Source: a virus (taxonomy: Duplodnaviria > Heunggongvirae > Uroviricota > Caudoviricetes). From it: DNA of 64,000 nucleotides. Position numbers and translations under genes: made by a program. This document shows, piece after piece, positions 15,812-63,268 of the stretch. A model generated the notes under the pieces. It was not told the DNA's origin and did no database searches. It saw only the letters and a program-made list of their open reading frames with translations. The stretch lies in the IMG/VR virus record IMGVR_UViG_3300002641_000714; one strand, written 5' to 3'. The first letter of the stretch is position 1; each line of letters starts with the position of its first letter.

Positions 15812-15824
15812 ATTAAAAATAAAA

Positions 15825-15840: not shown

Positions 15841-15846
15841 CTTCAT

Positions 15847-28719: not shown

Positions 28720-28742
28720 AATATTAATTTTTACTTAAAAAT

Positions 28743-29018: not shown

Positions 29019-29022
29019 ACTT

Positions 29023-34316: not shown

Positions 34317-34383
34317 ATAATATTCCTTTTCTGCCTAATCTAGTGTTCTAATCATATATTTTTATTTTAATTTTTATTTATTT

Positions 34384-36495: not shown

Positions 36496-36548
36496 TTTTT
36501 AATTACGATGCAAAATTAATAAAATTATTTCAAACTAAAAAATAGAAG
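36496..36548 (-). promoter_or_regulatory. Conserved early/middle promoter-like motif
   Basis: ttttaattacgatgcaaaattaataaaattatttcaaactaaaaaatagaag. Confidence 0.5.
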
Positions 36549-36632: not shown

Positions 36633-38552
36633 TTAAAGTCCTACGCAGTTTACATAGAATGTAATATATTGTGTTTCAGGATAGAAACCTGCATCTACAA
36701 GAGCGTAACGAGATTTAATCATAAGTTTTGGAGCCATTGTACCTTCAGCGATAATACGTACAACTTCAGCCATTACATATGGGCAGAAGTGAACACCTGG
36801 TTCATCTTTACCACCTTTACGACCAACTAATACACGAGTATCATTAGCTTTCATCAATGGATCAACGTAAACAGTTAAACCGCAAACAGTACCGATTGGG
36901 TAAAGTTGACCAGCAGTTTGTTTAACAGTATTCTCAATTGGTGAGAAGCTATAGTGTGCATCAGATTGTAACAATGTAGCAACACGGATATTAGTTACAA
37001 CGAATGTAGCAGCACCGTAACGACCACGTTGTTGGATCCAGTTAGAAGCAGCTAAGATGTTTGTGAAGATTCTCTTGATAAGAGTGTCACGGTTCTCGAA
37101 GTTAGCACCTTCAATAACACCCATTGGAAGTACTGGTATGCTAACCATTCTTTGAGAAGCATAACGTTGTTCTTGTTCAAGATATTCACCTTCTGGAATT
37201 GCATATGTAGCCCAGTCAAGATTACTAGGATTTTCTGCATCGAATTTTCTGAAGTTTAAGTTTAAGCATGCGCCAAGACCTTCAACTTCTACCATACGAG
37301 CGTGGTTTTTCCAACCAAGAGCAAACAAACGAGATGTGATGTGACGGTTGATAGTTTGAGAAAGTTCGTTTACACCAGCATTCTCAACAATCTTTAATAC
37401 ATCAATACCCCATTGTTTTTGGAGGTCAGTAACTTGTTCTTGAGTTACAGCACAAGCAACTTGGATAGTACCAACTTGGATGTTCTTTGTGAAGAGTTGT
37501 AATGAGATTTGACGAGCAGGAGTCATTTCACCTGTTGCACGGCTCATTGGTTCAAAAAGAACAGTACCATCTTGATATGTACCAGCCCATGCATCTTCAT
37601 CATGGTCACCAGCACCAGCAAAACCAAGAAGTTGATCCTCTAACATAGAGATTAATTTAGCACCTCTAACTGTAAGAGTAATTGCAGGAGTTTCACTTAC
37701 AAGTTCAACATCCTTTAAGAATGTTTCACCAAGAGATTGGTCGCCATCAACAACTTTGAACATTGGATCACCATCAATACGGCTCCAACCAATAAATTCA
37801 ACTGTAAGATGTTTATCAGCATCCTCAAATCTTACACCAGCTTTTAAACCAGCTTGTTCAAGCTCATATTTGTATTTAACAACTGGATCTGAACCTTGTG
37901 GAACAAGAACAGCTTTAAATGCATGTGGAAGTCCATAAAGACGGAAAGCAGCTGCGCCATTAATTGGTTTTTCTTCATTTGGCCAATTCTCTGGGAATGC
38001 TTTTGTAGAAGAATCAACAGCCATACGACGTTTGTTATAAACATGTGGATTAGCGCTGAATCTATCATATGCAGGAGTTGCACCATATGGTTGTTTGCTA
38101 CCGCTATATACATAGTCCATATAAGGAAGAACACCACTAGGACCTGCAAGAGGAGTAGTATTTACAAGTTCAAAACCAATAGTTTTAGCAGCAACCTTCA
38201 TTGCTAATGGAAGAAGTGCAGGGAATTTGTCACCTGAACCAAGAATTTTATCATCAGCCTATTGTGCGCCGGTCATTGCAGCCATTTTAGGAGCAACTAC
38301 ATTACCAACACCAAGAGTATTGTAAAGGTTGTTATATGGAGCATATGCACCACCGAACTCTGAGAATGCGTTAGCACCCATTTCAGGAGCAGATTCATTT
38401 AAGGATTTAGCTGTGTTGTGAGCAAGTTGACTCATCCAAGCAAGCTTTTCTGGATCCTTAACACCAGTTGTACGAGTAATCATTGGAGCCCAAGCTTCAT
38501 TGATCATTTGCTCTGCATTTTTAGCAGTAGCTTTTTGATTGTTTACTTTCAT
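36633..38552 (-). CDS. Putative major capsid protein (639 aa, 1 in-frame TAG)
   Basis: The track ORFs 38259..38552 and 36633..38201 share one frame ((38552-36633+1)/3=640) and are joined through the TAG at 38259-38261. The region is visibly more GC-rich with biased codons (ggt, gca, aac, ttc, atc), as expected for a highly expressed structural gene. The Gly/Ala-rich N-terminus is typical of processed capsid proteins. The late-type motif is upstream. The functional call is tentative. Confidence 0.5.
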
Positions 38553-38822
38553 ATTATTTTTTATAATTATTTTTTATTTAGTGTGTTATCTATAAAAAAG
38601 ATAACGGATAATCATTTTTCTAAATCTTTAATTAATCTTAATCATTTAATATGTCTATTTCGTAAATTTATTTTCTCTATACTAATAAATCTCTAAAATG
38701 AACGAGATGTGTTTTTGTTTCTTACATTACTCTTTCATATTAATTAAGACAGAAAGATAATTATATTTGTATTTTATTTATTTATTTTCTTAAAAAATGT
38801 TAAAAATGCAAAAATGCATATT

Positions 38823-39551: not shown

Positions 39552-39661
39552 GTTTTATTGATATTTTGTTGATTAACATTCTTTCTTTTATTATTTATTA
39601 AAGAATTAAAAATAAAAATTTTATTTTTTAATAATATATAAAATTTAATAAATATATTGAT

Positions 39662-40483
39662 ATGAAAAACTATAAACAAATATTAGAAGCAATTAATCGT
39701 GGTATTAAATTTGCATTAGACGATTTTGAAGATCAAGATGATATTCAAGGTTAGGATAATAGTAAAGTTAAGTATAAAGGCGGAATTAAAGACTGGTTAG
39801 ATTTAATGAGTGATGTTGTTGATTTAGGACTACCTTCAGGAACTCTTTGGTGCAAGTATAATTTGGGATGTGAAACTGAATTATTAAATGAAGAAGGTGA
39901 AAATAGTGTAGCTGATTGGTGGCAAGGTGATTATTTTGCCTGGGGTATTAATCAGCATAATGATTTTTTTACATGGGGGTCTTATGATTATTCAGACTGG
40001 GCTATAAAAATGTTGCCTAATTTAAAAACAGAAAATTGGGTTCTTAAATTATTTAAATATTGTTATGAAAAAGATACAGTTGCATCTATATGTGATGAAC
40101 CTGATAATAAAATGAAACTTGATTTGGAAGATGATGCAGCTTATGTAAAAAATAACAAATACTGCATACCGTCTACAGAACAATTTCAAGAATTATTAGA
40201 TAATACAAAACATAAATTTGTTGCAAATTATAATAATATTTCCGGACTAAACGGTATATTATTTGCATCTATCTATAATCAAAATACAATATTTTTTCCG
40301 CTTGCAGGTTATATGAATGAAGAAAATATCAGAAGAAAAAATACACAAGGTTTTTATTGGACATGTGATTTAAGCCCAAAATATCAAACATGCGCAAATT
40401 CATTTAATTTAACAAAGAAAACAGTAGAAGTTGGAAGTTATAGACGTGACCAAGGTTGTTCAATAAGGCCTGTATTAAAATAG
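39662..40483 (+). CDS. Leader-family-1 protein A with a DUF1566-like domain (1 in-frame TAG)
   Basis: ATG at 39662. Leader MKNYKQILEAINRGIKFALDDFEDQDDIQG, then TAG (39752-39754) exactly where paralogs E and F have Gln (QGQ), then DVVDLGLPSGTLWCKYNLG, YFAWG, IPSTEQFQELL and a C-terminal SIRPVLK. Confidence 0.65.
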
Positions 40484-40501
40484 TAAAAAAAACTCTAAAA
40501 T

Positions 40502-41341
40502 ATGAAAAATTATAAACATATATTAGAAGCTATAAATAGAGGAATTAAATTTGCATTAGATGACTTTGATGATAATGAAATTCAAGGTTAGATTAGTAGT
40601 AAAGTTAATCATCAACATGGAACTAAAGAATATCTAGACTTTGTGAATGAAGTTGTTGATTTGGGGCTTCCTTCAGGAACTTTGTGGTGCAAATATAACT
40701 TAGATGTTAATCCTAATCAGTTAACTAAACCTGAAGACTGGTATGGAAAATATTATGCATGGGGCGAATTAGGAGGAAATAAAACTAATAAAGATGGTAT
40801 AATTTATTTTTATTGGTCTAATTATAAATTTGGAAAATATGATTTAACTAAATATTGTAATGATTCAGAACATGGATTAAATGGTTTTACTGATAATTTA
40901 ACAGAACTTCAACTAGAAGATGATGTTGCATATCAAAACAAAAAACTTTATAATTATAAATTCCATATACCAACTAAAGAACAGTGTGAAGAATTATTGA
41001 AATATACTAATAATTATTGGGTTGTTAATTATAATCCTAATAAAACTATTCATAATCCAAAAGATGATGGCGGAATTCAAGGTTTGGATGGTGGAATATT
41101 TGAAGGAAGAAATGGAAATCAATTGTTTATTCCAGCAGCCGGATTCCGATAGGATTTATGTCGCTATCATGTTGGTTTTTATGGTCACTTGTGGTCTTCT
41201 AGTCTTTACTTAAAAGATTGTAGCAATGCTTACTGCTTAAGCATTAATTCAAACATTATCAATATATACAATGAGGAGCATACATATAATTATGGAGAAC
41301 GTATATATGGTTATAGTATTCGTCCAGTATTAAATTTATAA
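40502..41341 (+). CDS. Leader-family-1 protein B with a DUF1566-like domain (2 in-frame TAGs)
   Basis: Leader MKNYKHILEAINRGIKFALDDFDDNEIQG-TAG. The track ORF 40643..41152 is internal. Read-through of the TAG at 41150 gives the conserved C-terminus ...GYSIRPVLNL and a TAA at 41339-41341. Confidence 0.65.
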
Positions 41342-41354
41342 ATTAATTATTTAA

Positions 41355-42554
41355 ATGAAAAACTATAATAAAATATTAGAAGCTGTTAATAGAGGAATTA
41401 AATTTGCATTAGATGACTTTGATGATAATGAACTTCAAGGTCAAGTTAGCGGTAAAATCAATAATAAAAGTAATCTTAAAGATTGGCTTGAGTGGCAAGA
41501 ATGGATTAAAAAAATTGAAGCTAGAAGTTTAAAAACAGTAAAAGATATATAGGAATTAGCAGATTTTTCAAAATCAAGCAGATTTAAATATGAGGTTGGG
41601 AATAACCGTAATTTATTAATATCTTTAATTAATTATATAATTGAAATTGATTCAACTGCTGATTTAAACTGGATTGACGTATCTAAAATAACAGATATGA
41701 CACAATTATTTGATAATAGTAAATTTAATGGTAATATATCTGAATGGGATGTGTCTAATGTTGTAACAATGCGTCAAATGTTTATATTTTCTCATTTTAA
41801 TGGTAATATATCTAATTGGAATGTATCTAATGTTAAAGATATGCATAATATGTTCAGATGCTCTTATTTTAATGGTGATATATCTAATTGGAATGTATCT
41901 AATGTTAAAAATATGTCTGGTATGTTTAAAGATACATTTAATTTTAATAAACCATTAAATAATTGGAATGTTTCTGGTGTTGAAAATATGAGTGAAATGT
42001 TTCACGGATCTAGAAGATTTAATCAACCACTTAATAATTGGAATGTTTCTAATGTTAAAGATATGGCACAAATATTCTGTAATTGTAAATTTAATCAAGA
42101 TATTAATAATTGGGATGTTTCTAATGTGGAAGATATGCGTTGTATGTTTATGCAAAATCAATATTTTAATAAACCGCTTAATAATTGGAATGTTTCTAAT
42201 GTTAAAATGTTTGCAAGTATGTTTTGCGCATCTATATTTAATTAGCCGATTGGAAAATGGAATATGTCTAAAGCAATATCTCTTAGTGGAATGTTTAAGG
42301 GTTCAAGATTTAATTAGAATATTAATAATTGGAATGTTTCTGGTGTAAAATAGATGCATGAAATGTTTTGTAATTCCCGTTTTAATAAACCATTAGATAA
42401 ATGGAATGTTAGCAATGTTTGGGATATGGAATACATGTTTCAATCATCACAATTTAATCAAGATATATCAATGTGGAATATAAATCCTAATGTAAAAACA
42501 ATTTGTATATTTAAAGATGCTGTTATATAGAAAGAATATAAACCAAAAGTATTA
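41355..42554 (+). CDS. Leader-family-1 protein C with about 10 DUF285-like repeats (5 in-frame TAGs)
   Basis: Leader with QGQ (CAA). The track fragments 41355..41552 and 41697..42245 are in the same frame. Repeats have the form FNGNISNWNVSNVKDMHNMF. TAGs fall at repeat positions that are Q in sister repeats (FN-TAG-PIG vs FNQPL). TAA at 42552-42554. Confidence 0.65.
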
Positions 42555-42564
42555 AGAAAATATA

Positions 42565-43501
42565 AATGATAAATTATAAACAAATATTAGAAGCGGTTAA
42601 CAGAGGTATTAAATTTGCTTTAGATGACTTTGAAGATCAAGAAGATATTCAAGGTTAGATTAATAGTAAGGTTAATAATAAAAGTAATATTAAAGAATAT
42701 TTAGAATGGAATAAATGTCTTGATTTATTATTTAAGAATGTTGATACTAATTATTTTAATAAAATGGTTAAATTATCAAAAATAATTGGTATACAATATA
42801 AAGTTAATGATATAGATACATTAAAAAATATTATAAATTGGTCTTGCCAGATATGTCCGAATAATGATGCAAATTTAAATTGGTTAGATGTTTCTGAATT
42901 AACATCAATGTATGGTTTATTTGGAAATGATTATACTAAAAATTTTAATGGTGATATTTCTAAATGGGATGTATCTAATGTTGAAGATATGAATTATATG
43001 TTTTATAAAAGCAATTTTAATGGTAATATTTCTAAATGGGATGTGTCAAAAGTTAAACATATGAATTATATGTTTTCACACTCTATATTTAATGGTGATA
43101 TTTCTAATTGGAATGTATCAAAAGTTGAAACTATGATTGGTATGTTTAAAGAAGTTAGACCATATGATTACCCATTGGATAATTGGGATGTATCTAATGT
43201 TAAAAATATGTCTGACATGTTTAGTGATTCATGGTTTAACCAACCATTAAATAATTGGGATGTATCTGGTGTTGAAAATATGGCACATATGTTTTCTGGC
43301 TCACAATATGATTAGCCATTAGATAAATGGGATGTATCTAATGTTAAAAATATGGATTCAATGTTTTCTGCATCTCATTTCAGACAAAATATTAGTAATT
43401 GGAATATTAGTAAAGACTGTAATACTAATAATATGTGGAGATTAGGCATGTAGTATGATATTAATAAACCGCCAAAAACAAGATTAAGATATAGACGTTA
43501 A
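42565..43501 (+). pseudogene. Leader-family-1 paralog D, frameshifted in its leader, with a DUF285-repeat body
   Basis: From ATG 42565 the sequence MINYKQILEAVN is followed by an extra C (gttaacCagaggt at about 42600) that puts RGIKFALDDFEDQEDIQG-TAG-... and the repeat body (track ORF 42764..43315, read on through a TAG to the TAA at 43499-43501) in the +1 frame. This is a sequencing error, a pseudogene, or expression from the internal start at 42764. Confidence 0.4.
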
Positions 43502-43536: not shown

Positions 43537-45084
43537 TTAGAATAATGATGAAACATAACATAAATCTGAAGTAAAAGGTTGATATCCGAGAATTTCAATA
43601 ATTCTGTTTAACGGTGTTAAAACTAAATCTTCAAATTGTTGGTTATAATCAATCGGCAAAGCAAATTCTAATGGATACTTTCCAGGTGTAAAACCGAAAA
43701 CAGGATAATTAGGATCTGTAGTTTTATAGAATTTTACCTTGTCACGAGTTTTAATTGTTTCATATTTTAATTTATATTTCTTATTCTTTGGATTATTTAA
43801 TATATAATTATAAATTCCTGCAGCTTTAACATGAATTGGACAATGCTCGCCAAACACAAAATTATTTTTATCATCTAGAATAAATTTATCATAATCAGAA
43901 ATCTGAACACTTTTGCAAATATCTTCCGGATTTTGTTTAATAAAATCATCTTTAAATTTCTTAAGCATTGCATAAATATCATCAAATTCCGGTGCATTAT
44001 TATGTGTAATATACCAATTCATAATGCTTCTAATAAATTGATCTTGACATTTTTTTGCAAATGGTGGAGTAGAACCTTGAATTAATTCAAGTCCCTTATA
44101 GATAACATGTTCACCCGGCGTTACATAGATATTTGGTTCAAGAAAACATTCTGACATTGCATAATGTTTCTTTGCAATCATAATTGCAGTATCAGCAACT
44201 TTTTCAAGTTCAAGATTTTCAAGATTAACATCACAGTTGAATTTTTGTGCATACTCATCATATTTTTTATTCATATATGGGCCAATTCCGTAATTCCACA
44301 TATCAACAACAAAACGTGTCGCTTTATTAAAATCGTGTATTCCTAAAAATGTTGTAACACGCCCAAATTCAACATAAATTGAATCAGTATCACCATTTAT
44401 TGTTAAACTACATGTTGGATCATCTTCCAAATATGATGTTTTGCCCATATATGCAAACGGGTTTTCCTTAGAATTTAATGGATTTTTAGCTTTTAGTGCT
44501 AATGAATTAAGTGGTTCATTTTGTGTAATTTTGCCTTTATTAATTTCAAATTCTTTTATTTTTTCGTAAGGTTCTCCAAGATATTCGCCAAAAGATGTTT
44601 TAACTGAAACTTTTTTAAGTAAAGCTTTCATTTCTTTTGATAAATTATCTTGATCTTTAACTTCATTTTTACTTATTGGCAATTTAACTAAAACCCATTG
44701 TTTATCCGGTGTTTTAGCATAAAAATCATCAGTGGTTTCAATATCATATTTTTCCATCCACTCGAATAAAGGAACATAAATAATTCTGTTATATTCTTCT
44801 TGTGATTGAAAAATTCCCCTAAAATACTTATTGACACAGTTTTCTGAATAGTGGTTCAAATCCTGTCCTTGAAGTGTAATTGATTCAGCGACTGCGGTAT
44901 TATGACCAACGAAATACTTACTTGCGCAACTTCCATATACCGAATTAATAAATGTTTTAATAGCCAATTGTTTAGTTTCGTAATATCCTGATAAACTTTT
45001 ACACTCATTAATTGCATTATATAATTCTTCTTTAGAACAATTATCCGGATCTATTTCTATAAATTTGCTTTTATAAACTGCCAT
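43537..45084 (-). CDS. Family-B DNA polymerase, C-terminal fragment (motifs B and C plus thumb)
   Basis: KTFINSVYGSCA (KxxxNSxYG, motif B) at residue ~43 and INGDTDSIYV (motif C). The exonuclease domain and motif A are absent from this ORF and from the adjacent ORFs. Confidence 0.75.
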   Translation of the reverse strand: MAVYKSKFIEIDPDNCSKEELYNAINECKSLSGYYETKQLAIKTFINSVYGSCASKYFVGHNTAVAESITLQGQDLNHYSENCVNKYFRGIFQSQEEYNRIIYVPLFEWMEKYDIETTDDFYAKTPDKQWVLVKLPISKNEVKDQDNLSKEMKALLKKVSVKTSFGEYLGEPYEKIKEFEINKGKITQNEPLNSLALKAKNPLNSKENPFAYMGKTSYLEDDPTCSLTINGDTDSIYVEFGRVTTFLGIHDFNKATRFVVDMWNYGIGPYMNKKYDEYAQKFNCDVNLENLELEKVADTAIMIAKKHYAMSECFLEPNIYVTPGEHVIYKGLELIQGSTPPFAKKCQDQFIRSIMNWYITHNNAPEFDDIYAMLKKFKDDFIKQNPEDICKSVQISDYDKFILDDKNNFVFGEHCPIHVKAAGIYNYILNNPKNKKYKLKYETIKTRDKVKFYKTTDPNYPVFGFTPGKYPLEFALPIDYNQQFEDLVLTPLNRIIEILGYQPFTSDLCYVSSLF

Positions 45085-45110
45085 ATAATTTTATTAATTT
45101 TATTTTATAA

Positions 45111-45293
45111 TTATATGTTTTTATTATTTTTTGTTTTAATTAAATATTCAATGAACTTCCAAAAATGTTGTTCAAGTAAAACTTCATTATATGTTTCGTC
45201 TATTTTTTCTAAACTAGATTTTGGAACTCCAGAAATCTCATATATTTTTTGTTTAAAATAATCTAAATCAATTGTTTCCATTATATTTCTCAA
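45111..45293 (-). CDS. Small hypothetical ORF (TTG start; uncertain)
   Basis: 60-aa ORF with a TAA stop. It overlaps a possible read-through extension of the HNH gene. Confidence 0.3.
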   Translation of the reverse strand: MRNIMETIDLDYFKQKIYEISGVPKSSLEKIDETYNEVLLEQHFWKFIEYLIKTKNNKNI

Positions 45294-45366
45294 AATAAAA
45301 TTTTATTTCTTGCGGATGTTCTTCTACTAAACCATACTTAATCATCATTCGATATGTAAAATTTCG

Positions 45367-45579
45367 CTAGCAACATATCAATCCATGTTGTAATTCTTCT
45401 CTAAATCCTTCTATATCATTGGAGCCTTTTCTAAAATTACATGCTCTGCATGATGGATTTAGATTTTCTATAGAATCATCACCTGTATAATCTTTTGGTA
45501 ATAATTTTTCTTTATCTTTTTCAGACCAATTATGAAATACAGGTTTAATGTGATCTACCTGCATATCTTTATAATCCAA
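45367..45579 (-). CDS. HNH homing endonuclease
   Basis: VDHIKP...ENLNPSCRACNFRKG is an HNH motif. It lies immediately upstream of the truncated polB. The stop is TAG. If read through, the frame stays open for about 33 more codons to a TGA at about 45268. Confidence 0.7.
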   Translation of the reverse strand: MDYKDMQVDHIKPVFHNWSEKDKEKLLPKDYTGDDSIENLNPSCRACNFRKGSNDIEGFREELQHGLICC

Positions 45580-45604
45580 TTCGCATCCGCAATATGCGCA
45601 GTGT

Positions 45605-46072
45605 TTATTGTATTTGTTCCAAATTTGTTCCCTCTATATTTTGTTTAGTTTCATTATTATCTTCTGCTAATTTTTTAAGTGCAAATAGAACAATAGATTC
45701 CATTGAATCATTATATGTTTGACATGAACATTTATATATTTCATTTTCACTTACCCACCATATTCCATGCCAAAGTGGGAAAAAATATTCAGTAGTTTCT
45801 ATTTCTTTTCTTTCAATAAATCTATGAGGTTCAACCCATATTTTCAGATTTTTTATTTCTCTCAACCAATCACATATTTGTGATAAAGTTGGTGCAGACA
45901 TTACTGCATTATAGATTGCATTTTCACATTCTTCATTCCAGTCTCTATATTCGCCTTCTTCATATAATTCATATTCTGCATTTGATGTTTTTGCTAAATA
46001 GAAACTATTGGTTTTTTCGTGAAAACCAACTTTTTGCAATAATTTAGCTATTTCAATTGATACTTTTTTCAT
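45605..46072 (-). CDS. Hypothetical protein
   Basis: 155-aa ORF with a TAA stop. Confidence 0.5.
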   Translation of the reverse strand: MKKVSIEIAKLLQKVGFHEKTNSFYLAKTSNAEYELYEEGEYRDWNEECENAIYNAVMSAPTLSQICDWLREIKNLKIWVEPHRFIERKEIETTEYFFPLWHGIWWVSENEIYKCSCQTYNDSMESIVLFALKKLAEDNNETKQNIEGTNLEQIQ

Positions 46073-48524: not shown

Positions 48525-48619
48525 GTTCTAATTACAATTTTACTTAATTATTATATATAAAAATAATGAATTGTTTCTTAAATAAATATATTGTATAAAT
48601 AAAAAATATAATTAAATAT

Positions 48620-49123
48620 ATGAAAAGCGTTAGCAAAAAAGCTTTATATGAAAGCATTATGACTTCGGTTGCTAAACAAGTAAAGAAAACATTGAATGAG
48701 AATAATAATGTGAATGATAATGCAGATTAGTTGAAGGAGTTAATTGCAGAGCATGAAAGTAGGCTTAGAGTATTAAAAAGAAAGCTTGCAGTATTAGAAA
48801 GTGAAAAGGAAATAATAGATGCGTTTGCAAAAGGTATTAATGACTGGACTGATTGGCATGATTCACATTATAGCAATTATATTCGTGAAGGTGAAGAAGG
48901 AAAAGAGTTAATAGAAGCCAGTGGTGGAATATGTAATTATATATATGAAACTGGTTGTAAAGATATGTATTCGTTTATTGAAGATTGTTTAGATGATATA
49001 GATATAGATATAGATGATGATGATTTTGAATTTGATGAAGATTTTATAGAGGATTTTATTAAAGAACATGATGAAGAAATTAATGGTGTATTGGCATCAG
49101 ATTATGGATATGTCTTTGAATAA
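48620..49123 (+). CDS. Leader-family-2 protein, acidic (1 in-frame TAG)
   Basis: ATG 48620. Leader MKSVSKKALYESIMTSVAKQVKKTLNE, TAG at 48728, then track ORF 48731..49123 in the same frame. The late-type motif cttaaataaatatattgtataaataaaaaat is upstream. A terminator hairpin lies at about 49164-49192. Confidence 0.6.
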
Positions 49124-49250
49124 TGATTAATTATATAATTTATTAAAAAATATAAAATTAAAGAAATCGGATTTCTTTCCTTTTTATTTCTTATTATTTT
49201 TGAAATTTATCACAATAAATAAATATATTATAAAAAATAATATAATAATT

Positions 49251-49661
49251 ATGAAAAGAGATAACAAAAAAGCTTTATATGAAAGCATTATGACTTCTGT
49301 AGCTAGAGAAGTTAAAAAGACTTTAAATGAAACTGTAGTAGATACAGAAGATAATGAAACTGAGACAATCAATCATTGTTTAGATGAGATTAAACATTGT
49401 TTGTATAATGGCTGTGATTTTACACAATATAACAAGTATATTGATAGTAAAAAATTTTATGTAATAACTGGATGTATATATGATTGTATTTAGCAAGCTA
49501 GCAATATTGCAAAAAATCTTACAACACTCGCTGAAAATTCTGCAGTATATAAATAGAATTTAAATAATAGTATATCTATATCTATGTTAGAAAAATGCAG
49601 CAATCAATTAGAAGATCTTGATAGTCTTATGAGACGGTTAAAACGCGCATTAAATTATTAA
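49251..49661 (+). CDS. Leader-family-2 protein (2 in-frame TAGs)
   Basis: Leader MKRDNKKALYESIMTSVAREVKKTLNE. The TAG at 49491 is read through (second TAG at 49554) to the TAA at 49659-49661. Upstream motif acaataaataaatatattataaaaaataatat. Confidence 0.55.
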
Positions 49662-49790
49662 TATTAAAAAGGCGGATTTTATTAATTTTAATTAATAAAA
49701 GAGAGAATCAAAGAAATTTGGTTCTCTTTTATTTTTGTCTAATTATTTCTTAAATAAATAATAAAAGAAATAAAAGTATATATTATAATT

Positions 49791-50696
49791 ATGCGAAAAA
49801 ATTCTGATTTATATAATAAAATAATGGAGCAAGTTGCAAAAGAAGTTAAACGTTCTTTAAATGAAGTTGACGATATTGCTCCAGTTAAACAAGAAGTTTC
49901 TGGTGAAGTTTATTTAGTTCGCTGCGATGGAATGAATAAGAAAACATTAGATATGTTATCATCTAAATTACCAGCATTTGATAATTATGGTTCCGGTTCT
50001 ATCAGAGTAACATGCAAAACTCATGAAGAAGTTATTAAAGTCATTTCTTTATTGGTTAATTCAAATGTTTTAGATATTGATAATTCTCTTGGACAATCTC
50101 CTAGAATTTCAATTCAAAAAGTTAATAAGAATTCTGTTAATGATTCTGTTAATGAAAATCGTCAAGAGTTATCACGTGATTATATTCAAATGAGCAAAAT
50201 TAAAACACCAAGGCAACGAGTTAAATTTGAAATAATCCAAAAAATTAATAAAGGTGAAATTCCTGCAACTCCTGAAGCAATCCGTGCAGAAATTGATAAA
50301 TCCGGTGAATGGATAGATCGTTCTGAACCAAGAATTCAAATGGATGTTGATCTTATTATGAGAAAAACTACTGATGAAATAATGGAAGGTGATTTTATAA
50401 CAGATTTCATATATTCAAAAGATAATTATGAACCTGGTGAATTTAGTAATGGAATGGAAGCTGCAGAAAATCATGTTAAATGGTTAAAAAAGCATGGGCT
50501 TGGTGTAAGGGTTGAAGAAGGTAGATATTCATTTAAATATTATATTCATTATAGCACTAAAAAACAATTTAATGATTTAGTTCAATGGATGGCATGGCAT
50601 TGTGGATTTACTGATACAATAACAAATCCACCATCAAAAGAAGATAGAAAATATTTTGAAGAAATTGTTAAATCAGGAAAGAAAACTACATGGTAA
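49791..50696 (+). CDS. Leader-family-2 protein (301 aa)
   Basis: Leader variant MRKNSDLYNKIMEQVAKEVKRSLNE. TAA stop and no TAG. Confidence 0.6.
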   Translation: MRKNSDLYNKIMEQVAKEVKRSLNEVDDIAPVKQEVSGEVYLVRCDGMNKKTLDMLSSKLPAFDNYGSGSIRVTCKTHEEVIKVISLLVNSNVLDIDNSLGQSPRISIQKVNKNSVNDSVNENRQELSRDYIQMSKIKTPRQRVKFEIIQKINKGEIPATPEAIRAEIDKSGEWIDRSEPRIQMDVDLIMRKTTDEIMEGDFITDFIYSKDNYEPGEFSNGMEAAENHVKWLKKHGLGVRVEEGRYSFKYYIHYSTKKQFNDLVQWMAWHCGFTDTITNPPSKEDRKYFEEIVKSGKKTTW

Positions 50697-51859: not shown

Positions 51860-51956
51860 TATTTAATAAAACATTTTTATATTATAAATTATATACAAAA
51901 ATTTGAAATGGTTTAATCTAAATAAATATATTGATAATAAAAAATAATTTAATAAT

Positions 51957-52403
51957 ATGAAAAAGATAGTAAAAAAAGCTTTATATGAAAGCATTATGAC
52001 ATCTGTGGCTAAAGAAGTTAAGAAAGTATTGAATGAATCAGATTCATTAAGTGATTCATTAAATGATATTAAAAAACAACTTATTGAAAATGGTGATGGA
52101 ATATATTTTGTATATAGCGATTATATATCACGTGATGCAGCATACCTTTATGTTGTTAAAAATGGAGAAATTATTCATCAAGAACACCCAAGTTGTTTTA
52201 TGACACTTAATTATTATGGCGATGGTAAGCCATGCGGTATTATTCCTTCATTAAATAAATTAATTCGTGAATATTATGAATTAAATTTATATGTAGCAAA
52301 TAAAGGCTGGTATACATTTCCGCAAAAATGGAGAGAATGTGATTGGACTACAACACTTGAAAAATATGGTATTAATTCTACACTAATAAATATTGATATT
52401 TAA
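51957..52403 (+). CDS. Leader-family-2 protein (148 aa)
   Basis: Leader MKKIVKKALYESIMTSVAKEVKKVLNE. TAA stop. Upstream motif ctaaataaatatattgataataaaaaataat. Two tandem hairpins follow, at about 52413-52437 and 52466-52496. Confidence 0.6.
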   Translation: MKKIVKKALYESIMTSVAKEVKKVLNESDSLSDSLNDIKKQLIENGDGIYFVYSDYISRDAAYLYVVKNGEIIHQEHPSCFMTLNYYGDGKPCGIIPSLNKLIREYYELNLYVANKGWYTFPQKWRECDWTTTLEKYGINSTLINIDI

Positions 52404-52522: not shown

Positions 52523-55500
52523 TTATTGATCTGATAAACGTTGAAGTGTGAACTTTTGAATAATTTTCTCCATTCCGTGATTCATCCACAAGTTGATTTC
52601 TACAACACATGCATCTGCTTCAATAACATCTGGTGTGTTATTAGTTTCATCACAAATAATTTCATAACGAACTAAAGCACCAGAGATTTGCATTGCAGAA
52701 AGAATTGGAGTAAGTTGTTGAACAATATTTGCACGAACTGCAGGAGTATTGTATTTAAAGTTATATTTCTTAAGAACTTTCTCACATTCAATTTCAGCAG
52801 TGTTAAGATTTTCACGAACATGAAGTTTATTAAAGTCTGACTTCATTGCTTGATAAGCTGTTTGATTACCATAAATCATGATAGAACCTTGATCCTTAAT
52901 AATTGTATTAACACCGAATGGTTCAAGATATTCACGATCTGTTAAGTCTGCTAAGAACTCAAGACCTTTAAGATATCTATTAGATAAGATACCGTTTTGG
53001 TTAGCACAAATTGCATATGGATCATTGATACCATTGAATTTACGATTCAAAACATTTGCTACATCAGCTGCTGGTGGAACTACAATCTCTTTACCATTCT
53101 CTTGGTAAATCAAGTGTGGCCAGAAGCATGCTGTAAACTTAGCACCGTCTTCTTCACTTGGTAAGCTGAAGATAACAGTTGAACCCATTTCAGTATTACC
53201 GCCTTCAGGAATATATTTAGTATTCATTGATGGACGAGCCTCAGCACCTGGAGTATAAGTATCACAGAAATAAGGATTAGAACTTACTGCAAATTGTTTT
53301 GCTGATGGCAAGTTAAGAATTGCAGTACATTTACCTCTTTCTTGTGCAGTAATTGATAACCAGCGTTTACCACCAAGTTCTGAATTAAGACCATATGACA
53401 TTGAGTCAATAATATAACGGTAGTCAACCATTGCAGGATTCATTAAACCGCGTTTGATACCTTCATCATTCAATACTGAATAAACTTTTTCAATACCGTC
53501 TTCGATATTAAGTTGACCATTTGAATCATAGCCTGGACGATGACGTGATGTAATTGTAAGACCCTTCATAGGAATAAATCTTAATGAACCTGAAATTCTA
53601 TCATCAGAAATTGGTAATTGACGAATAATTTCATTATTTTCAATAAGAACAGGAGCAGTACAAGTTACCAAATAGAAACCAAATTTACCGGTTGAGAACT
53701 CTGCATAATTACCATTATAATCATATGATACACCTTGATAAGAAATCTTATTATCAGTTTTATTATATGGAATAAATTGTTTTCTAATTACACGAGCAAG
53801 ACCTGGAATAAGTTGGTATTCTTCTGTTTGTCCAGCTTCATTTTTATATGTAATATTATGTACATAGTCACCAAGTTTAACCTTTGCATCAGACCATTGT
53901 GAAGCATCTGTAATAATAAACATATTCTTAGTATCTGCTGATACAGGAGCAACATCACCCCATAATGTTGGATCACTAAAGTATTTAACATTAGATATTG
54001 TTTCTTGAACACCGTCTTTATCAGCTTCAACATAATTATATGATAAGAAATTAATACCATAGTATTCATCTAATGCCTTATTTTCATCTACTTTATTTTC
54101 ATTTAATACTAGCAAACCATCTTTTTCTTCAGCAGATACAATATATAATTGTTTAGTACTTGGATCTTGTTTAACGCCTACAGTATATGATTCGCAGAAT
54201 GTTGAATTATCTAAAATAAAGAATGCAGAAACATCAACAGTATCATTATCTAATACTTTATCTTTACTAAGTTCAATATCAAAATATAATGTTTTTGTAG
54301 ATAATGTACCAGTATTAGAAACAACATAATAATTGTTATTTAACAAATCAGCTACATTTGCTTTACTGTATATTGAATTATCAAGCATTGTAACATCTTT
54401 AAGGAATTCAGATGCAACAAATTTACCTGGGCGAATTGCATCAACAAAATCATTAATAGATGGATTACTATAAAGTGATACATCAGCAATAGACGGATTA
54501 TCAACCTTTACTAATTCTGTTAATTCAAATGCAGGTGATTTATAAAATTTCTTTCTATCTGAATTATAAACATAGACACTTGCATCAATTGTATCTAAAA
54601 TTGGTGCTTCTATCCATTTTTTATCAACTGGTTCTTTTTTCATAAATGCTTCATGACCAACCATATCAACAATATATTTAGCAACAGATTCGCCACCTGC
54701 AACCTCACCGCTATTGTCAATATCTAATCCCCAGCATCCAGAATCAGGATCACTAGAACCAGTATCTTTACCAGAATAATCATATGTAAGAACATTTGCA
54801 AGATCTTGGTTAAATGACATTAACAAACCTGTTCTTTCAGTAGCAGCATTAACTTTCTTTTCAAGGTTAAGCATATTACCTTGTTTATCAGTAAAATCGG
54901 GAATAATACATCCAGTCCATGAACCAAGAACTGTTACACCTTCAGCACTCATGAATTGATTAATACGATTCTTGATAATACCTTTTTTATCAAAGAAACC
55001 TTTCCATACAGGATCTGTAGAAAGAACCGGATAATTAGACCAGTTACCTTTAACACAAACTACTTGAAGGAAATAATCAGAAATATTATCATATGGACGA
55101 ATCCAGCCAAACGGAATATTTTCACGGCCACCGAACCAAGATTCAGCAGTTACTTCATAACCTGGCATACTAGCTGGTTTGAATACCAAAATAGAAATCT
55201 CTTCTGTTCCAACATTTACAAAGTTAAGTAAGTTACCATTTTCAAATGTATATGAAGTAGGATTTTCTGGAGCATTCAAATTACGAGCAGCTTCGGCAGT
55301 TAACAAATCTTTATCTGGAACCCAGAAACGTGATCTGTTAAATACACTAGCAAACGGAGTTTTTGCTACATATGGAATATTATCACCTTTAACTGTTCCA
55401 TAAATAACTCTATCTATAGAATCTGCCAAATAATCATATTCTCCATATGTATTATCTGAACTATTACATGCAGGGTTAGCCTCACCAGCACTCATTGATA

Positions 55501-55837
55501 ATACTGCAAGGTTAACTTGATCTGGACCGCTATAAGCAGTAGATACATTTAATAAGTTAAGTGCAATAACAGGGCCACCGTTTAATAAGGTTCTTAACAT
55601 TCTATTAAAGTAGCTTCCTTTATGCTCTAATTTTGTATCAATATCACCAAATACTCTTACTCTGTCAGTATCATCCTATAATAAAACAGGACGGTTAAAA
55701 GGCCCTTTATTAGAGAAACCAACTAACATGCGTAAAGAATCAGTTGCTTCATCGATAGCTCTGACGGTGTTATCAACTTCAAGAGTATAAATACCAGCAG
55801 CTTTAAAAGAATTTAAATCAATACTAATTTTACCCAT
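52523..55837 (-). CDS. Contractile tail sheath protein (T4 gp18-like, 1104 aa, 1 in-frame TAG)
   Basis: The C-terminal VRYEIICDETNNTPDVIEADACVVEINLW matches the gp18 C-terminal block YRVVCDTTNNTPSVIDRNEFV. The track ORF starts at 55600, but the frame continues upstream through a TAG (...RPVLL-TAG-DDTDRVRVFG...) to an ATG at 55835-55837 (MGKISIDLNSFKAAGIYTLEVDN). Confidence 0.85.
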
Positions 55838-55972
55838 ATTATTTAAATTTATTATTTTTTATCTTTTTATTTTTATATTTATTTTATATTCAATTAGCAA
55901 AAATATAATTTATATAATAATACAATATTATACTTTTATTATTTATTTTCAGTTGAAAAAAGAAAAAATAAA

Positions 55973-56000
55973 AAGTGATTCAATTATTTTTGAATCACTT
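55973..56000 (-). terminator. Terminator hairpin after the primase gene
   Basis: 11-bp stem aagtgattcaa / ttgaatcactt. It overlaps the primase stop codon. Confidence 0.55.
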
Positions 56001-57162: not shown

Positions 57163-57209
57163 TTTTAATTATTTAGTTAATAATTATATGATGAAAGAGA
57201 ATTTTGTTT

Positions 57210-57980
57210 TTACAAATTTATTACTGGACGAATTGGAAGCCCTTTGTAACGAGCGCACTAAGCACAAAAAATTTCAGGTTTTAATTTATTAGTATTAAAA
57301 TTTAATGTCATGCCATATTGCATATTATTAATTTTAGAATTAATAACTGTATTAGTCCAATAATTTCCATTTGTAGGATATTCATTTACATCTTTTTCTC
57401 CACATTTTTTACATGCTGGAAAAAATAATTCATTACCATTTTTCCCTATAAATAACCAGCCATCTAAATAATATACATTTCTATATTTTTCAACTGGTTT
57501 ATTTATTGTATTTTTTATTAATTCATTAAACTATTCAGGTGTTGGTATGCAAAACTTTAAATTACTATTCTAATACGCAGCATCATCTTCAGATAGTAAT
57601 GTATTTAAATTATCTTTATTATTATATTTAGTTAATTCTTTTCCAAATTTATATGTTTCCCATGAATATTCTGGCTTTGTCCCTAATTCTGTTTCACCCC
57701 AAGCAAAGTAATCACCATACCAATCTAAATATGTAGTATAATAAGGATCTTTATTTAAAAACCTCCAATCACACCCAAGATTATATTTACACCAAAGAGT
57801 TCCTGAAGGAAGTCCAAGATCAACTACTTCATTCATTAAATCTAACCATTCTTTAGTTCCACCTTTATACTTAACTTTACTACTAGTTTGACCTTGAATA
57901 TCATCTTGATCTTCAAAATCATCTAAAGCAAACTTAATGCCTCTATTAACAGCTTCTAATATTTTATTATAGTTTTTCAT
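57210..57980 (-). CDS. Leader-family-1 protein E with a DUF1566-like domain (3 in-frame TAGs)
   Basis: The track ORF 57570..57980 (leader with QGQ, DLGLPSGTLWCKYNLG, YFAWGE) ends at a TAG. Read-through gives ...CIPTPEQFNELIKNT... and the family C-terminus GLPIRPVINL, with a TAA at 57210-57212. Confidence 0.6.
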
Positions 57981-59959
57981 ATATTATTAATATCTTCCTT
58001 ATTTACAACAGCTCTTATTTGTAATCCAACACATCTATCAATATCTTTAATTGACGGTTTTACATTTTTGAATATATTTAATTCATATGCCATGTATTCT
58101 TTACCTTTAATATTTTCACATGCCCAATAATAACCGCCATATTTATAGATACTTAATTTATCTTTTTCCATAATATTTGTATATGGCATAAATAATTTTT
58201 CTTTATTAATTTTACTGATAAATGTAATACCGTTTAATCCTGTAATTCCTTGATAATCCTATTCAAATTTTATTTTAGTATTTTTTAATAATTCTTCAAA
58301 TTGTGCTTTTGATGGAATACAAAAATTAAAATTAAAAGATTTAGTTAATTTTTGAACAGCTGCATCATCATCTGGTATAAGCGTATTTAATTTATCAAAT
58401 CTGACATTATATTTAGGATTATTACCATATTTAGTTAATTTATCCCATGCACCGTTTGCATACTTATAAGTTGTCCAATCATATTGTGCTTTTGGTTCCA
58501 ATTCACCCCAAGCATAATAATTACCTATCCAATCTTTAGCATTATCTAATTTATCAATATTAACACCTAAATTATATTTGTGCCATAATGTTCCTGAAGG
58601 CAATCCTAAATCAACAACTTCTTTCTTTATATCTAAATATTCTTTCCAACTACCTTTATAATGGTTTGTTTTACTGCTAGATTGACCTTGAAGTTCTTCA
58701 TCATTATCAAAATCATCTAAAGCAAAACGAACATTATTATAATTAAATGATTCATTTAAATTTACTTTATTTTGATATGGACGTAATGTTACTTGCATTA
58801 TATAACATACTGTTGGAAATAAATTTTTCCATAAATAATTTTTGGGATCTGTTTTCTTTTTAAGATCAAATACGACAGGATCATTATTATTTAAAATAAA
58901 ATTAATATATAATTTCTTATTTTCAGCAAAATTAACTGTAAAATAAAAACCAAAATCAGTTTTTTCTAATCCAGTAATTTCAATAGTATCAACTAATGCA
59001 TCTTTTAATAATAATGTTCTTGTAATATTTTTATAAATTAATTTTTCATATTCTTTATTAAAATAGTCAAGTGCAAGATCAATACGTTTTTCTCTTGGCA
59101 CCGGTAAACGTCCAAGTGAATCTGTTTCTTCTCGGAAATATGTATATGGTATCATTAAAAAATGTAAATTCTAAATATATGTATTATATTCATTAATTTG
59201 TTCATTATATTCATCTATTTCATTTTCCGGATGATTGTTTATTTCTGCATAATTACGATTATCTTGCAAATCATCAACTAATTTTTGATAATGCTACTGT
59301 AATTTATAAAATTCTATATATTTTTTATTACTTTCACCTGTATTATATTTGTCATAACAATCATTTATAAAATCAACTAAATATTGTTCAAGATCCATTT
59401 TTATTTCATAGGTATCTTCTAATAACTTATTTTCAATTCCAATTTTATTATTTTCTTTGCTTTGTAATGAATTAGAATTTAAACTGTATTTTAATTCATA
59501 ATATTTTTTAACAGATTGATAACGTTCTAATAATGTTTTATCATTAGAAGACAAATCCAAACAATCTCTTGATTTAATATTAATTGTTGCCGCATTTTGT
59601 TTAATATATTGTGTAAATGTAGAACGTGTCTGAATTGTATTTTCTAAATATTCTAATAGATATTTAATAAAATTTTTAGGTTCATACATTAAAAATGATT
59701 CAAGATCCTGATACTTCTATGCACCATTTATCATTCCATAAAAATCATGAATATCATTTTGAGTATATTTAGTTTTATTATTTCTTAAATATTGAAGATA
59801 ACTATATATTTTTTTAATAATATTTTCAGATTTACCGCATTTTTCTTTTGGTAAACCATATTTTAAACCTACTTCTAATTTTTCTGATTTAGAAGGAACC
59901 TAATCTTTGATATGTAATAAATCTTGTCTAACTTCAAATTCTGAAATTTTATTTTCCAT
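57977..59959 (-). CDS. Leader-family-1 protein F: long N-terminal extension, internal leader remnant, DUF1566-like domain (about 5 in-frame TAGs)
   Basis: Track fragments 59294..59689, 58259..59155 and 57977..58189 are co-linear in one frame, and the frame stays open further upstream to an ATG at about 59959. Contains ...NVRFALDDFDNDEELQGQSS...VVDLGLPSGTLWHKYNLG...YYAWGE...CIPSKAQFEELL...ITGLNGITF...GLQIRAVV. Its TGA (57977-57979) overlaps the ATG of gene E. My coordinates are within about 1 nt. Confidence 0.5.
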
Positions 59960-60001
59960 AATTTTATATATACATTTCTATTCAATATATTTATTAAAAC
60001 A

Positions 60002-60029
60002 AATGACTCTAGAAAAATCTAGAGTCATT
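60002..60029 (-). terminator. Terminator hairpin after the gp32-like gene
   Basis: Perfect 12-bp stem aatgactctaga / tctagagtcatt with a 4-nt loop. On the minus strand it is followed by ttgtttt and then the late-type motif of gene F. Confidence 0.6.
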
Positions 60030-60069
60030 CTTAAAAGAAGAATTTACTTATAATAATTACTCATCATAA

Positions 60070-62397: not shown

Positions 62398-62494
62398 TTA
62401 ATTAAAAATATATTTTATATTATAAAACAAAATTATTGATTGGTTTTTCTATAAACATTAAAATAAATATTTTGATAATAAAATTTGACTTATT

Positions 62495-62539: not shown

Positions 62540-63268
62540 ATGAGTGGAAAAAGTAAAAAAGTTCACGGAACTAAACAAACTTTAGAATTTGTTGAGGAAG
62601 AGAAAAAGCTTCATGTTAAACAAATTAAATGCATGAACCCTCGCCAAAAAGAATTTTTAAAATCTATCGAAACACATGAGGTAACCATTTGTTCTGGTAC
62701 ACCAGGTTCTGGAAAAACATTTTTATCTTTGTATTCATTTTTAAAAATGTTGGAGAAAAATCAAATAGAACAAATTTTACTAGTTAAATCAGTTACGCAA
62801 ATTCCTCATGAAGAAGTTGGATTTTTAAAAGGATCATTAGAGGACAAATTATCGCCATCAATGCAATCATACTTTCATAATATTGACAAATTAATTGGTG
62901 AAGAACAAAGAAAAAAATTAATAGCGCAGAACAAAATTAAAGTTGTTCCATTAGCATTTATACGTGGTTGTCAATTTGATAATGCTGGATTAATAATGGA
63001 TGAAGTTCAGAATATTACAATGGATATATTTAAATCTTTAATAACACGTATTGGTTATAATAGCAAATATATATTTCTTGGAGATATAGAACAATGTGAT
63101 TTGCATAATAAAAAAGATGAAGCATTATCAAAAATAATAAAAATTTTTAATGATGATAAAAATATTGGTATTATATAGTTTAATGATGAAGATTGTGTTA
63201 GAAATCCAATTATTCCTAAAATATTATAGAAATTAAGAAATTATGAAAATGAAAATAAAATGAAATAA
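62540..63268 (+). CDS. phoH: PhoH-like ATPase (2 in-frame TAGs)
   Basis: Walker A ICSGTPGSGKTF, then IRGCQFDNAGLIMDEVQNIT and LGDIEQCDL. The track ORF ends at the TAG at 63176. Read-through gives NIGII-Q-FNDEDCVRNPIIPKIL, which matches the conserved PhoH C-terminus (..DVVRHPLV..). A second TAG and then a TAA at 63266-63268. Confidence 0.8.

Follow-up and report, generated by a model that had tools for sequence, protein, structure and literature searches.

A probable T4-type late promoter associated with in-frame TAG codons in a Lak-like Prevotella megaphage

Introduction

A stretch of 64,000 nucleotides from the viral record IMGVR_UViG_3300002641_000714 (Caudoviricetes, IMG/VR), hereafter designated the window, contains a short AT-rich element with the core ATAAATA, which recurs upstream of genes on both strands. 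A previous reading of the sequence alone, made without database searches, had described this element as a 15-mer followed by an A-rich box and regarded it as a late-type promoter driving exactly the genes that contain sense TAG codons. The analysis reported here suggests that a shorter element is probably a late promoter of the T4 type, heading genes that carry TAG codons in frame in a phage of the Lak megaphage group.

Lak megaphages are uncultured, and to our knowledge nothing has been published on the timing of their gene expression. The late promoter of T4 consists of an 8-bp TATA box spanning -13 to -6 and AT-rich DNA from there to the start site; a -35 element is lacking, and in 9 of 50 sites A replaces T at -13 (PMC2988020). 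The T4-like cyanophages S-PM2 and Syn9 have NATAAATA late promoters, which were recognized in silico before genes homologous to late genes of T4, and also possess homologues of g55, g33, and g45 (PMC2984593). For Lak, crAss-like, and other gut phages, a model has been put forward in which stop-codon recoding regulates late and lytic genes (Borges et al. preprint, 10.1101/2021.08.26.457843); the word "promoter" is absent from that preprint and from the Lak papers, and a 2026 jumbo-phage review makes no mention of a Lak late box, a partition of promoters with recoding, or a TAG-bearing late sigma factor.

Results

Genes of the window and identity of the phage

The window has a GC content of 28%, and its intergenic DNA, amounting to 10% of the total, is about 82% A+T. 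Many of its open reading frames (ORFs) grow longer once TAG is taken as a sense codon, one 464-residue ORF containing 11 in-frame TAGs, and a minus-strand block at about 13–36.5 kb is almost without in-frame TAG. The capsid gene (36633–38552, 639 residues) encodes a protein of the Gp23 major capsid family (Pfam, E = 6e-35), which is 61% identical to the capsids of Prevotella phages Lak-A, Lak-B, and Lak-C; more distant matches are T4-like cyanophages (gp23) and Tenacibaculum jumbo phages, and closer relatives (81–82% identical) are IMG/VR contigs of 262 and 380 kb. Pfam further identified the tail sheath, gp32, PhoH, and DUF285 repeat proteins, and the window also encodes Rad50/Mre11-like gp46/47, a split family-B DNA polymerase, a primase, and an RF2-like release factor. 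Because of this capsid identity and the T4-like gene set, the window is placed in the TAG-recoded Lak megaphage group of Prevotella, as a divergent member. Judging from the homologues of the Gp23-family capsid, gp32, gp46/47, and sheath, the phage family is distantly T4-like. Megablast with 16.5 kb of the window found no close DNA relatives among GenBank phages, PHROGs gave almost no annotation for 10 motif-adjacent proteins, and tRNA and Rfam scans of the window detected no tRNA genes, suppressor tRNA, or known RNA families.

Distribution and anatomy of the box

The 15-mer TAAATAAATATATTG is present at the places named in the sequence-only reading, in exact form at 48579–48593 and 51919–51933, with one mismatch at 39645–39659, 49216–49230, and 59983–59997 (-), and with two at 11813–11827 and 62460–62474. 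With up to two mismatches allowed, 18 matches were found against 5.0 expected, a number reached in none of 100 shuffles. A tighter pattern, AATAAATAT[AT]TT[GA], has seven copies in the window (0.29 expected; 0 of 1000 dinucleotide shuffles of the intergenic DNA alone reached 7), all of which are intergenic, sense-oriented, and located 2–65 nt before an ATG; the genes that follow are 11848, 39662, 48620, 49251, 51957, gene F, and phoH. Likewise, the intergenic DNA contains 14 copies of the word AAATAAATA, where 4.9 would be expected (a count of 14 was reached in 1 of 1000 shuffles), and 20 of the 34 copies of [AG]ATAAATA lie within the intergenic tenth of the window. The spacing from the 15-mer to the ATG is thus 2–65 nt, not 0–25 nt as had been claimed, and gene F truly starts with the ATG that ends at 59959 rather than at 60028.

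For comparison, the complete published genome of Lak-C1 was assembled (540,217 bp; 548 ORFs, 346 of them with an upstream gap of at least 30 nt). Alignment of 14 well-placed window sites gave an invariant AATAAATA followed by four A/T positions (W4), a purine (13 of 14), and A (10 of 14). In the 12 positions preceding the box (-12 to -1 relative to it), the 81 Lak-C1 and 14 window sites show only an A/T bias and no -35-like element. On the T4 register, the conserved purine-A would fall at the predicted -1/+1, and the Lak-C1 sites have A at frequencies of 0.84 and 0.82 at these two positions. The distance from box to ATG is 19–40 nt at 11 of the 14 window sites, with an overall range of 7–102 nt, and 20–30 nt at 47 of the 81 Lak-C1 sites. 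The functional unit comprises the 8-bp box and the bases close to the predicted start site, rather than the 15-mer with its A-rich box.

Three subtypes can be distinguished by the bases after the core: ..TATATTG[AT], corresponding to the motif first described; ..ATAAAAG (49791, the distal sheath box, 38823, and 5361); and ..TATAAAAAT (the proximal sheath box). We propose that the TATATTG tail represents the bases nearest the start site in one subtype, common mainly to paralogous leader-family cargo genes. The 15-mer was rejected as the functional unit, the conserved core being the shorter (A/G/T)ATAAATA, four A/T, and then purine-A. Also rejected as a part of the motif was the "ATAAAAAATAAT box", which is not specific, since A-rich words such as AAATAATAAA precede most genes of the window, early ones included; the A-rich stretch after the motif is read as an ordinary A-rich leader without a Shine-Dalgarno sequence, as is usual in Bacteroidetes-type messages. 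The motif itself has no GGAG-like core and stands 7–102 nt from the ATG, and so does not fit a Shine-Dalgarno sequence (purine-rich, at a fixed 5–10 nt). The variable distance, the strict orientation, a terminator often just 5', and the conservation of orthologous sites support the earlier view of a promoter rather than a ribosome-binding site. The resemblance to T4 late promoters was also borne out, the core AATAAATA corresponding to the T4 TATA box with A at -13 and fitting the cyanophage NATAAATA.

The predicted late boxes of the window, with the genes that follow them, are listed below. The leader family and the cargo operon named there are described under Additional observations, and relatives are designated by L-numbers.

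51919–51933 (+), index copy: box AATAAATA at 51921–51928, then TATT-G-A, with a predicted start site near 51934; 28 nt to the ATG of 51957–52403 (leader family, no TAG); kept in L028 and L032, where the downstream leader differs
48581–48588 (+), box AATAAATA, with a second, canonical TATAAATA at 48594–48601 (+): before 48620–49123 (leader family, 1 TAG); conserved in L028 and L030
49214–49225 (+), two overlapping AATAAATA boxes: before 49251–49661 (leader family, 2 TAG)
49753–49760 (+), box subtype CTTAAATAAATAATAAAAG: before 49791–50696 (no TAG), directly after the terminator hairpin 49699–49730; block invariant in L028, L029, L030, and L033, the orthologues keeping TTTCTTAAATAAATAATAAAAGAAA
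11815–11822 (+), putative late box: before 11848–13035 (leader family, 4 TAG)
39647–39654 (+), putative late box: 7 nt before the ATG of 39662–40486, the first gene of the cargo operon
59988–59995 (-), putative late box: before gene F (57977–59959, 5 TAG), directly after the terminator hairpin 60001–60030; TTTTAATAAATATATTGA invariant in L029 and L031, the hairpin showing compensatory changes
62462–62469 (+), putative late box AATAAATATTTTG: 70 nt before phoH (62540–63268, 2 TAG; PhoH by Pfam, E = 5e-54), with a hairpin in the leader between
55876–55883 (-), proximal sheath box TAAAATAAATATAAAAAT: 38 nt before the tail sheath gene 52523–55837 (1 TAG); 13 columns invariant in the window, L029, L031, L032, and L033; GATAAATA in L032
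55940–55947 (-), distal sheath box AAAATAAATAATAAAAG: directly after the primase terminator 55973–56000; 16 columns invariant in 5 relatives, though the terminator sequence differs
3403–3410 (+), canonical TATAAATA: 29 nt before 3440–3910 (4 TAG), the next gene being 3910–5304 (11 TAG)
5712–5719 (-), putative late box: 21 nt before 5361–5690 (1 TAG)
34375–34382 (-), putative late box: 19 nt before 33906–34355, the only internal-TAG gene inside the otherwise TAG-free minus-strand block
38571–38578 (-), doubtful: AATAAAAA, one mismatch to the box; 18 nt before the capsid gene 36633–38552 (1 TAG)

Besides 3403 and 48594, the canonical TATAAATA is present at 11302 (-). The sheath copy had been counted as an instance of the full motif; it shares AAAATAAATATA / AAATAAATATA only and is without TATTG. 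The predicted transcript of 39662 would be nearly leaderless, and the orthologous site in L005 reads TTTAATAAATAATATGTATG, indicating that this arrangement is conserved. Among virion genes, that of the sheath carries two conserved boxes, and most other box-bearing genes have no assigned function.

The capsid copy, also claimed earlier, was rejected as a member of the motif: at about 38571–38578 (-) it reads AATAAAAA without the ATAAATA core, and this word is conserved in L004 and L005, yet gives no ATAAATA match there. Lak-like capsid genes at greater evolutionary distance are preceded by GATAAATA or TATAAATA. A hairpin, GTTATCT-N7-AGATAAC (38580–38610, -), stands some 25 nt upstream of the capsid leader, and its loop-stem reads TATAGATAA. 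In L004 and L005 the hairpin is conserved and shows a compensatory change, T-to-C / A-to-G; it might serve as a leader structure or as a divergent promoter of the capsid gene.

A near-exact copy of the 15-mer, TAAATAAATATATTC, lies at 36396–36410 (+), antisense inside the coding sequence 35997–36485. It is either a chance occurrence or an antisense late start; T4 transcribes both strands late.

Association with internal TAG codons and a second promoter class

Only internal TAG codons were counted, those in the last six codons being ignored as apparent genuine stops. In the sense-strand upstream gap, ATAAATA was found at 10 of 11 head genes with internal TAG and at 7 of 33 others (p = 7e-5), compared with 1 of 11 and 4 of 33 in the antisense control; the only TAG-containing head gene without the box is that of the capsid. 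In Lak-C1, the corresponding counts were 89 of 151 and 40 of 195 (p = 3e-13, refined TAG definition). There AATAAATA was among the most frequent oriented upstream 8-mers (75 sense versus 27 antisense), and an unbiased discriminative scan placed ATAAATA first among the TAG-associated words out of 410 7-mers tested (91 versus 38, p = 6e-14). A strong association of the motif with TAG-containing genes is therefore found in both the window and the complete Lak-C1 genome, although "exactly the TAG genes" was too strong a wording, with the box at 7 of the 33 head genes lacking internal TAG and no consensus box at the capsid gene. High frequency before early genes, the observation named beforehand as contrary to a late role, was looked for, and the motif proved to be essentially absent from the TAG-free early block.

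Some genes of the TAG-free class apparently end at TAG. They are 7246–8304 (-), with TAG at codon 348 of 352, and 28731–29099 (-), at codon 119 of 122; in 10690–11262 (-), a tandem TAG-TAG at codons 187–188 of 190 is an apparent real stop. Proteins stopped in this way would gain short C-terminal extensions under TAG suppression.

Bacteroides sigma-A promoters have a -7 box TAnnTTTG and a -33 box TTTG. In Lak-C1, the top word of genes without internal TAG, TGTATCTTTGTA (42 versus 1), contains TAnnTTTG, and the pattern TAnnTTTG[CT]A shows the reverse bias to the late box, occurring at 3 of 151 TAG-containing head genes and 39 of 195 others (p = 7e-8); in the window it occurs at none of the 11. 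The window has nine copies of such an early-class promoter, all preceding genes without internal TAG.

36509–36548 (-), early class CTTCTATTTTTT-N15-TATTAATTTTGCA, containing the Bacteroidetes -7 box TAnnTTTG
31504, 30828, 26467, 21937, 15811, 15559, 9987, and 8371 (-), starts of eight more early-class copies

This class, represented by …GTATTAATTTTGCA in the window and TGTATCTTTGTA in Lak-C1, resembles Bacteroidetes sigma-A promoters, whereas the ATAAATA motif has no TAnnTTTG match and the opposite TAG association. Because Lak-C1 repeats it, the two-class partition of promoters with TAG is a property of the family and not of the window alone. The 533-nt "gap" 15314–15846 holds two complete early-type promoters (15811 and 15559, -), each followed by a short ORF; these small early genes were missed by a 70-residue cut-off.

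The sequence-only reading counted two promoter classes; there are probably at least three, with a conserved TTTTT-N-TATAAT before T4-like replication genes. This third word, TTTTT-N3-5-TATAAT, was observed on the minus strand at 57182–57190, 51887–51895, 48550–48557, 45109–45117, and 7134–7142, that is, 19–28 nt before the ATG of the primase, gp47, gp46, the C-terminal half of the DNA polymerase, and 6336–7109, and is conserved in L029, L031, and L033. It may represent a middle promoter class read by another sigma factor. A scan of the window for the generic sigma-70 consensus found no enrichment (141 matches versus 155 expected).

Conservation of the boxes and adjoining terminators

The box is invariant at orthologous sites in L028–L033, namely those of the sheath gene (two copies, 64 nt apart), 49791, gene F, and the orthologues of 48620 and 51957, and the flanks diverge; in several of these relatives the sheath and 49791 proteins are only about 50–75% identical. 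Across five genomes, the gap between the primase and sheath genes retains two invariant blocks, AAAATAAATAATAAAA and T(A/G)ATAAATATAAAAAT, with variable sequence between them, and is preceded by a terminator that differs in sequence but maintains its hairpin. Hairpins resembling intrinsic terminators lie just 5' of boxes at 60001–60030 (-), 55973–56000 (-), and 49699–49730 (+). A terminator scan gave 11 sites against 4.9 expected, the strongest three being immediately 5' of boxes, and the neighboring terminators keep their structure through compensatory changes. The resulting layout of terminator, box, short leader, and gene has the look of independent late transcription units. In L028, the 51957 orthologue carries a 48620-type leader after its box, which suggests an exchange between paralogues.

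A gp55-like sigma factor in the Lak family

A hidden Markov model (HMM) of gp55 was built from six proteins of a T4/cyanophage set, including T4 gp55 (verified at 100%). It matched the Lak-C1 ORF 193275–193766 (-) of MK250029 with E = 4.6e-6, covering the YVxNK and FDxxxxxNPFAY motifs; the same ORF matched PHROG 234, "late sigma transcription factor", with E = 4.9e-11. Reciprocally, a profile of the Lak-family proteins found genuine T4-like gp55 (E = 1.5e-7). Across Lak-like contigs there are 33 gp55-like homologues, some with a precomputed Sigma70_r2 match. These proteins end in a conserved ..SLDNNIHSF, which resembles SLDFLY, the clamp-binding tail of T4 gp55. A hydrophobic C-terminal motif is retained in gp55 homologues (PMC2988020). 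By analogy with T4, the ..SLDNNIHSF tail suggests tethering to a sliding clamp; other proteins sharing this C-terminal tail were looked for, and none was found.

In every Lak-like lineage examined, the gp55-like gene contains 1–5 in-frame TAGs, where homologues have Gln, and late sigma synthesis would therefore require TAG suppression. Examples of such genes are as follows.

L051, 10001–10384: TAG-bearing gp55-like gene
L058, 10001–10390: TAG-bearing gp55-like gene
L062, 103–489: TAG-bearing gp55-like gene
L150, 5115–5498: TAG-bearing gp55-like gene
L153, 5844–6227: TAG-bearing gp55-like gene

The flanks of the gp55-bearing contigs L058–L062, L150, and L153 show no copy of the clade-specific early promoter by which they could be assigned to the lineage of the window.

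Discussion

A T4-type late promoter as the preferred interpretation

Taken with the enrichment, orientation, spacing, and conservation of the box and with the gp55 homologue of the family, the association with TAG codons leads us to consider that the motif is probably a T4-type late promoter of a Lak-like Prevotella megaphage, heading genes with in-frame TAG. The part recognized would be the 8-bp TATA box (A/G/T)ATAAATA, placed near -13 to -6; four A/T base pairs would come after it and then a purine-A near -1/+1, and no -35-like element would be needed. Presumably, host sigma-A polymerase reads the TAnnTTTG promoters early in infection, and the resulting proteins conform to the standard code. 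At a later stage, when TAG has come to be decoded, the phage gp55-like sigma factor would direct the host core RNA polymerase to (A/G/T)ATAAATA. Initiation about 6 nt past the box would give messages with a short A-rich leader or, as at 39662, with almost none, and the TAG-containing genes, for virion proteins and variable cargo, would be expressed from these late boxes. The promoter program and the code switch would therefore partition the same genes, and late transcription appears to be tied to the genetic-code switch of the phage.

Like T4, the window phage has an 8-bp box at the predicted -10 position without a -35 element, AT-rich DNA to the predicted start, copies on both strands, and a box heading the sheath gene, and the Lak gp55 homologue has the C-terminal SLD-hydrophobic tail. 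Unlike in T4, the preferred first base in the window is A or G rather than T, the canonical TATAAATA being in the minority; the Lak host belongs to the Bacteroidetes, which have their own TAnnTTTG promoters; neither gp33 nor gp45 was detected; no consensus box precedes the capsid gene in the window clade; and the promoter class coincides with stop-codon recoding, which is absent in T4. The relaxed first position of the cyanophage NATAAATA fits both AATAAATA and GATAAATA, whereas the window phage has a host of another phylum, a much larger genome, and an alternative genetic code, and its gp47 neighborhood is without gp55, which adjoins gp47 in cyanophages. With the published recoding model, our results share the Lak family, in-frame TAGs in structural and late genes, early genes in the standard code, and an encoded RF2 and suppressor tRNA; that model treats recoding as post-transcriptional control, to which the promoter partition and the TAGs in the late sigma gene are additions. 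The promoter type is itself already known, and what appears to be new is its presence in Lak-like phages, its partition with recoding, and the TAG-bearing late sigma gene.

Several observations weigh against this interpretation. The motif word is AT-rich in an AT-rich genome, the window shows no enrichment of the canonical TATAAATA (5 copies against 7.0 expected), and 4 of the 7 13-mer copies precede paralogues, so that these events are not fully independent. The Lak-C1 gene set is a crude greedy ORF call. Seven head genes without internal TAG carry the box (51957, which follows the index copy, 49791, 38823, 5886, 2301, 10690, and 15847); among them, 2301 is the first gene of an operon in which the following genes contain 4 and 11 TAGs, 38823 has TAG-bearing orthologues in L004 and L005, and 49791 and 51957 come from the leader family, in which other members have TAGs. 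The major capsid gene, an archetypal late gene of T4, has no consensus box in this clade.

The late-factor search proposed earlier succeeded in part, giving a gp55-like sigma factor in Lak phages; the T4/cyanophage and Lak-family HMMs detected no gp55, either in the window or among the loci fetched from its close relatives (including the gp47 neighborhood of the clade), and two degenerate DNA patterns applied to viral contigs found none for the 262-kb and 380-kb contigs. Among the matches listed in a gp55 profile scan of IMG/VR were T4-like phages and no contig of the window's clade. Single-sequence phmmer, which is weak at such distance, found no gp33 or gp45 at E < 0.05 among the ORFs of Lak-C1 and the window. 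The sigma factor for the window's lineage is thus assumed from the wider family, and we infer the start site and timing for Lak-like phages from sequence.

Alternative explanations

The best surviving alternative, though an improbable one, is an RNA-level element in the 5' untranslated region, either an A/U-rich translation enhancer or a translational-regulator site at constant spacing from the start codon that follows, the host group being one without Shine-Dalgarno pairing. The rather narrow ATG distance in Lak-C1 (20–30 nt at most sites) and the generally A-rich sense strand of upstream regions would agree with it; however, conserved sites also stand at 7, 70, 86, and 102 nt, the sheath gene has two conserved copies, and in many cases no more than about 10 nt separate the start of the box from a terminator T-run, which would place it outside a transcript starting downstream or at the extreme 5' end. 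Moreover, generic A-rich words are equally common before early genes and ATAAATA is not, and the sequence equals a known DNA promoter box with a matching sigma factor in the family.

Somewhat less probable still is a variant host sigma-A promoter (-7/-33 type) used by unmodified host polymerase, in which TATATTG would be a degenerate TAnnTTTG. TATATTG does resemble TAnnTTTG minus one T, and its ATG distance is similar to that of early promoters, but none of the seven copies matches TAnnTTTG, all reading TATATTG or ATATTTTG; TATTG is confined to the seven-copy subtype, the sheath, 49791, 5361, and 33906 sites showing AATAAAAG, TAAAAAT, or similar words; and true TAnnTTTG promoters of the window and Lak-C1 have the opposite TAG association and a distinct upstream element.

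It is very unlikely that the motif is a relic or recombination handle of duplicated, shuffled cargo cassettes (5' flank plus N-terminal leader) with no promoter role. Such a view draws on the four copies before paralogues sharing the N-terminus MKK..ALYESIMTSVAKEVKK, on the motif-bearing plus-strand genes, which form islands in a minus-strand backbone and vary between relatives, and on the L028 leader, which points to paralogue exchange. Upstream sequences nevertheless differ among the paralogues, with only the box in common, and the same box stands before the unrelated sheath, phoH, gene F, 5361, 33906, and 3440 and throughout the Lak-C1 genome. Duplication explains the exact 15-mer recurring before paralogues, not the box before unrelated genes or across Lak-C1, and cassette shuffling is compatible with promoter function without being a substitute for it. 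Finally, a chance low-complexity word is scarcely credible, for although the intergenic DNA is very AT-rich and TATAAATA itself is not enriched, composition-matched shuffles, antisense controls, the positional peak, orthologous conservation, and TAG association are all contrary to it.

A possible circuit linking recoding and late transcription

Returning to the T4-type late promoter, we tentatively propose a single circuit, whose correctness we would put just short of an even chance. The TAnnTTTG promoters would drive only standard-code genes (some ending in TAG) and the ATAAATA promoters the TAG-recoded genes; the gp55-like gene itself containing TAGs, late transcription would wait for suppressor tRNA, a translational checkpoint upstream of the transcriptional switch. 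Neither the suppressor tRNAs nor the gp55 gene of Lak-C1 has a clear early or late box directly upstream, which leaves the first step of the proposed cascade unsupported. If the circuit exists, the motif of the window would be its visible output, and the concrete order offered would be suppressor tRNA, TAG-containing gp55, and ATAAATA promoters. Recognition of the late box may allow hundreds of unknown genes in 500-kb genomes to be sorted into early and late from sequence only; it would further provide independent, transcription-level evidence that stop-codon recoding marks late genes, and would tie gut megaphages mechanistically to the T4 lineage.

Additional observations

The members of leader family A (11848, 48620, 49251, 49791, and 51957) have in common MKK..ALYESIMTSVAKEVKKxLNE, after which they diverge completely; their homologues were found only in similar phage contigs and are unnamed. 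KxLNE is common to this family, and the N-terminus of the capsid protein (36633–38552) contains AKSLNESAPE. As T4 internal proteins carry capsid-targeting propeptides, KxLNE could by analogy be a prohead-protease site and the leader a propeptide of this kind, although this is only a lead. A second leader family, MKNYKQILEAINRGIKFALDDFEDQ.. (39662–43501 +, 57210–57980 -, and 57977–59959 -), is fused to DUF285 repeats or lectin-like domains. The cargo operon 39662–43501 (+) comprises four genes with 2–5 TAGs each, encoding FISUMP-like and DUF285 proteins; the FISUMP-like and lectin-like labels are presumptive, not being confirmed by Pfam. This four-gene cassette is absent in L004, where both DNA polymerase halves adjoin, and is replaced at the same site in L005 by a different gene of the second leader family. 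In the hyperplastic regions of T4, promoter/stem-loop cassettes shuffle cargo genes, including those for internal proteins, and the short cargo genes of the window are similar in having their own terminator and promoter-like box, a conserved N-terminal leader, and variable presence.

The gene for the RF2-like peptide chain release factor (21940–23046, -) lies in the TAG-free block downstream of the early-type promoter at 21937, a position that fits early expression of a factor terminating at TAA/TGA and not at TAG. The family-B DNA polymerase is split, 43537–45084 (-) being the C-terminal half that starts just before the KxxxNSxYG motif, and an HNH endonuclease gene adjoins it (entries 43537–45084 (-) and 45268–45651 (-)). 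In L004 (4048–7144), a 510-residue ORF follows the C-terminal half of the polymerase on the same strand, and the Lak-like contig L058 has a polymerase fragment with an intein.

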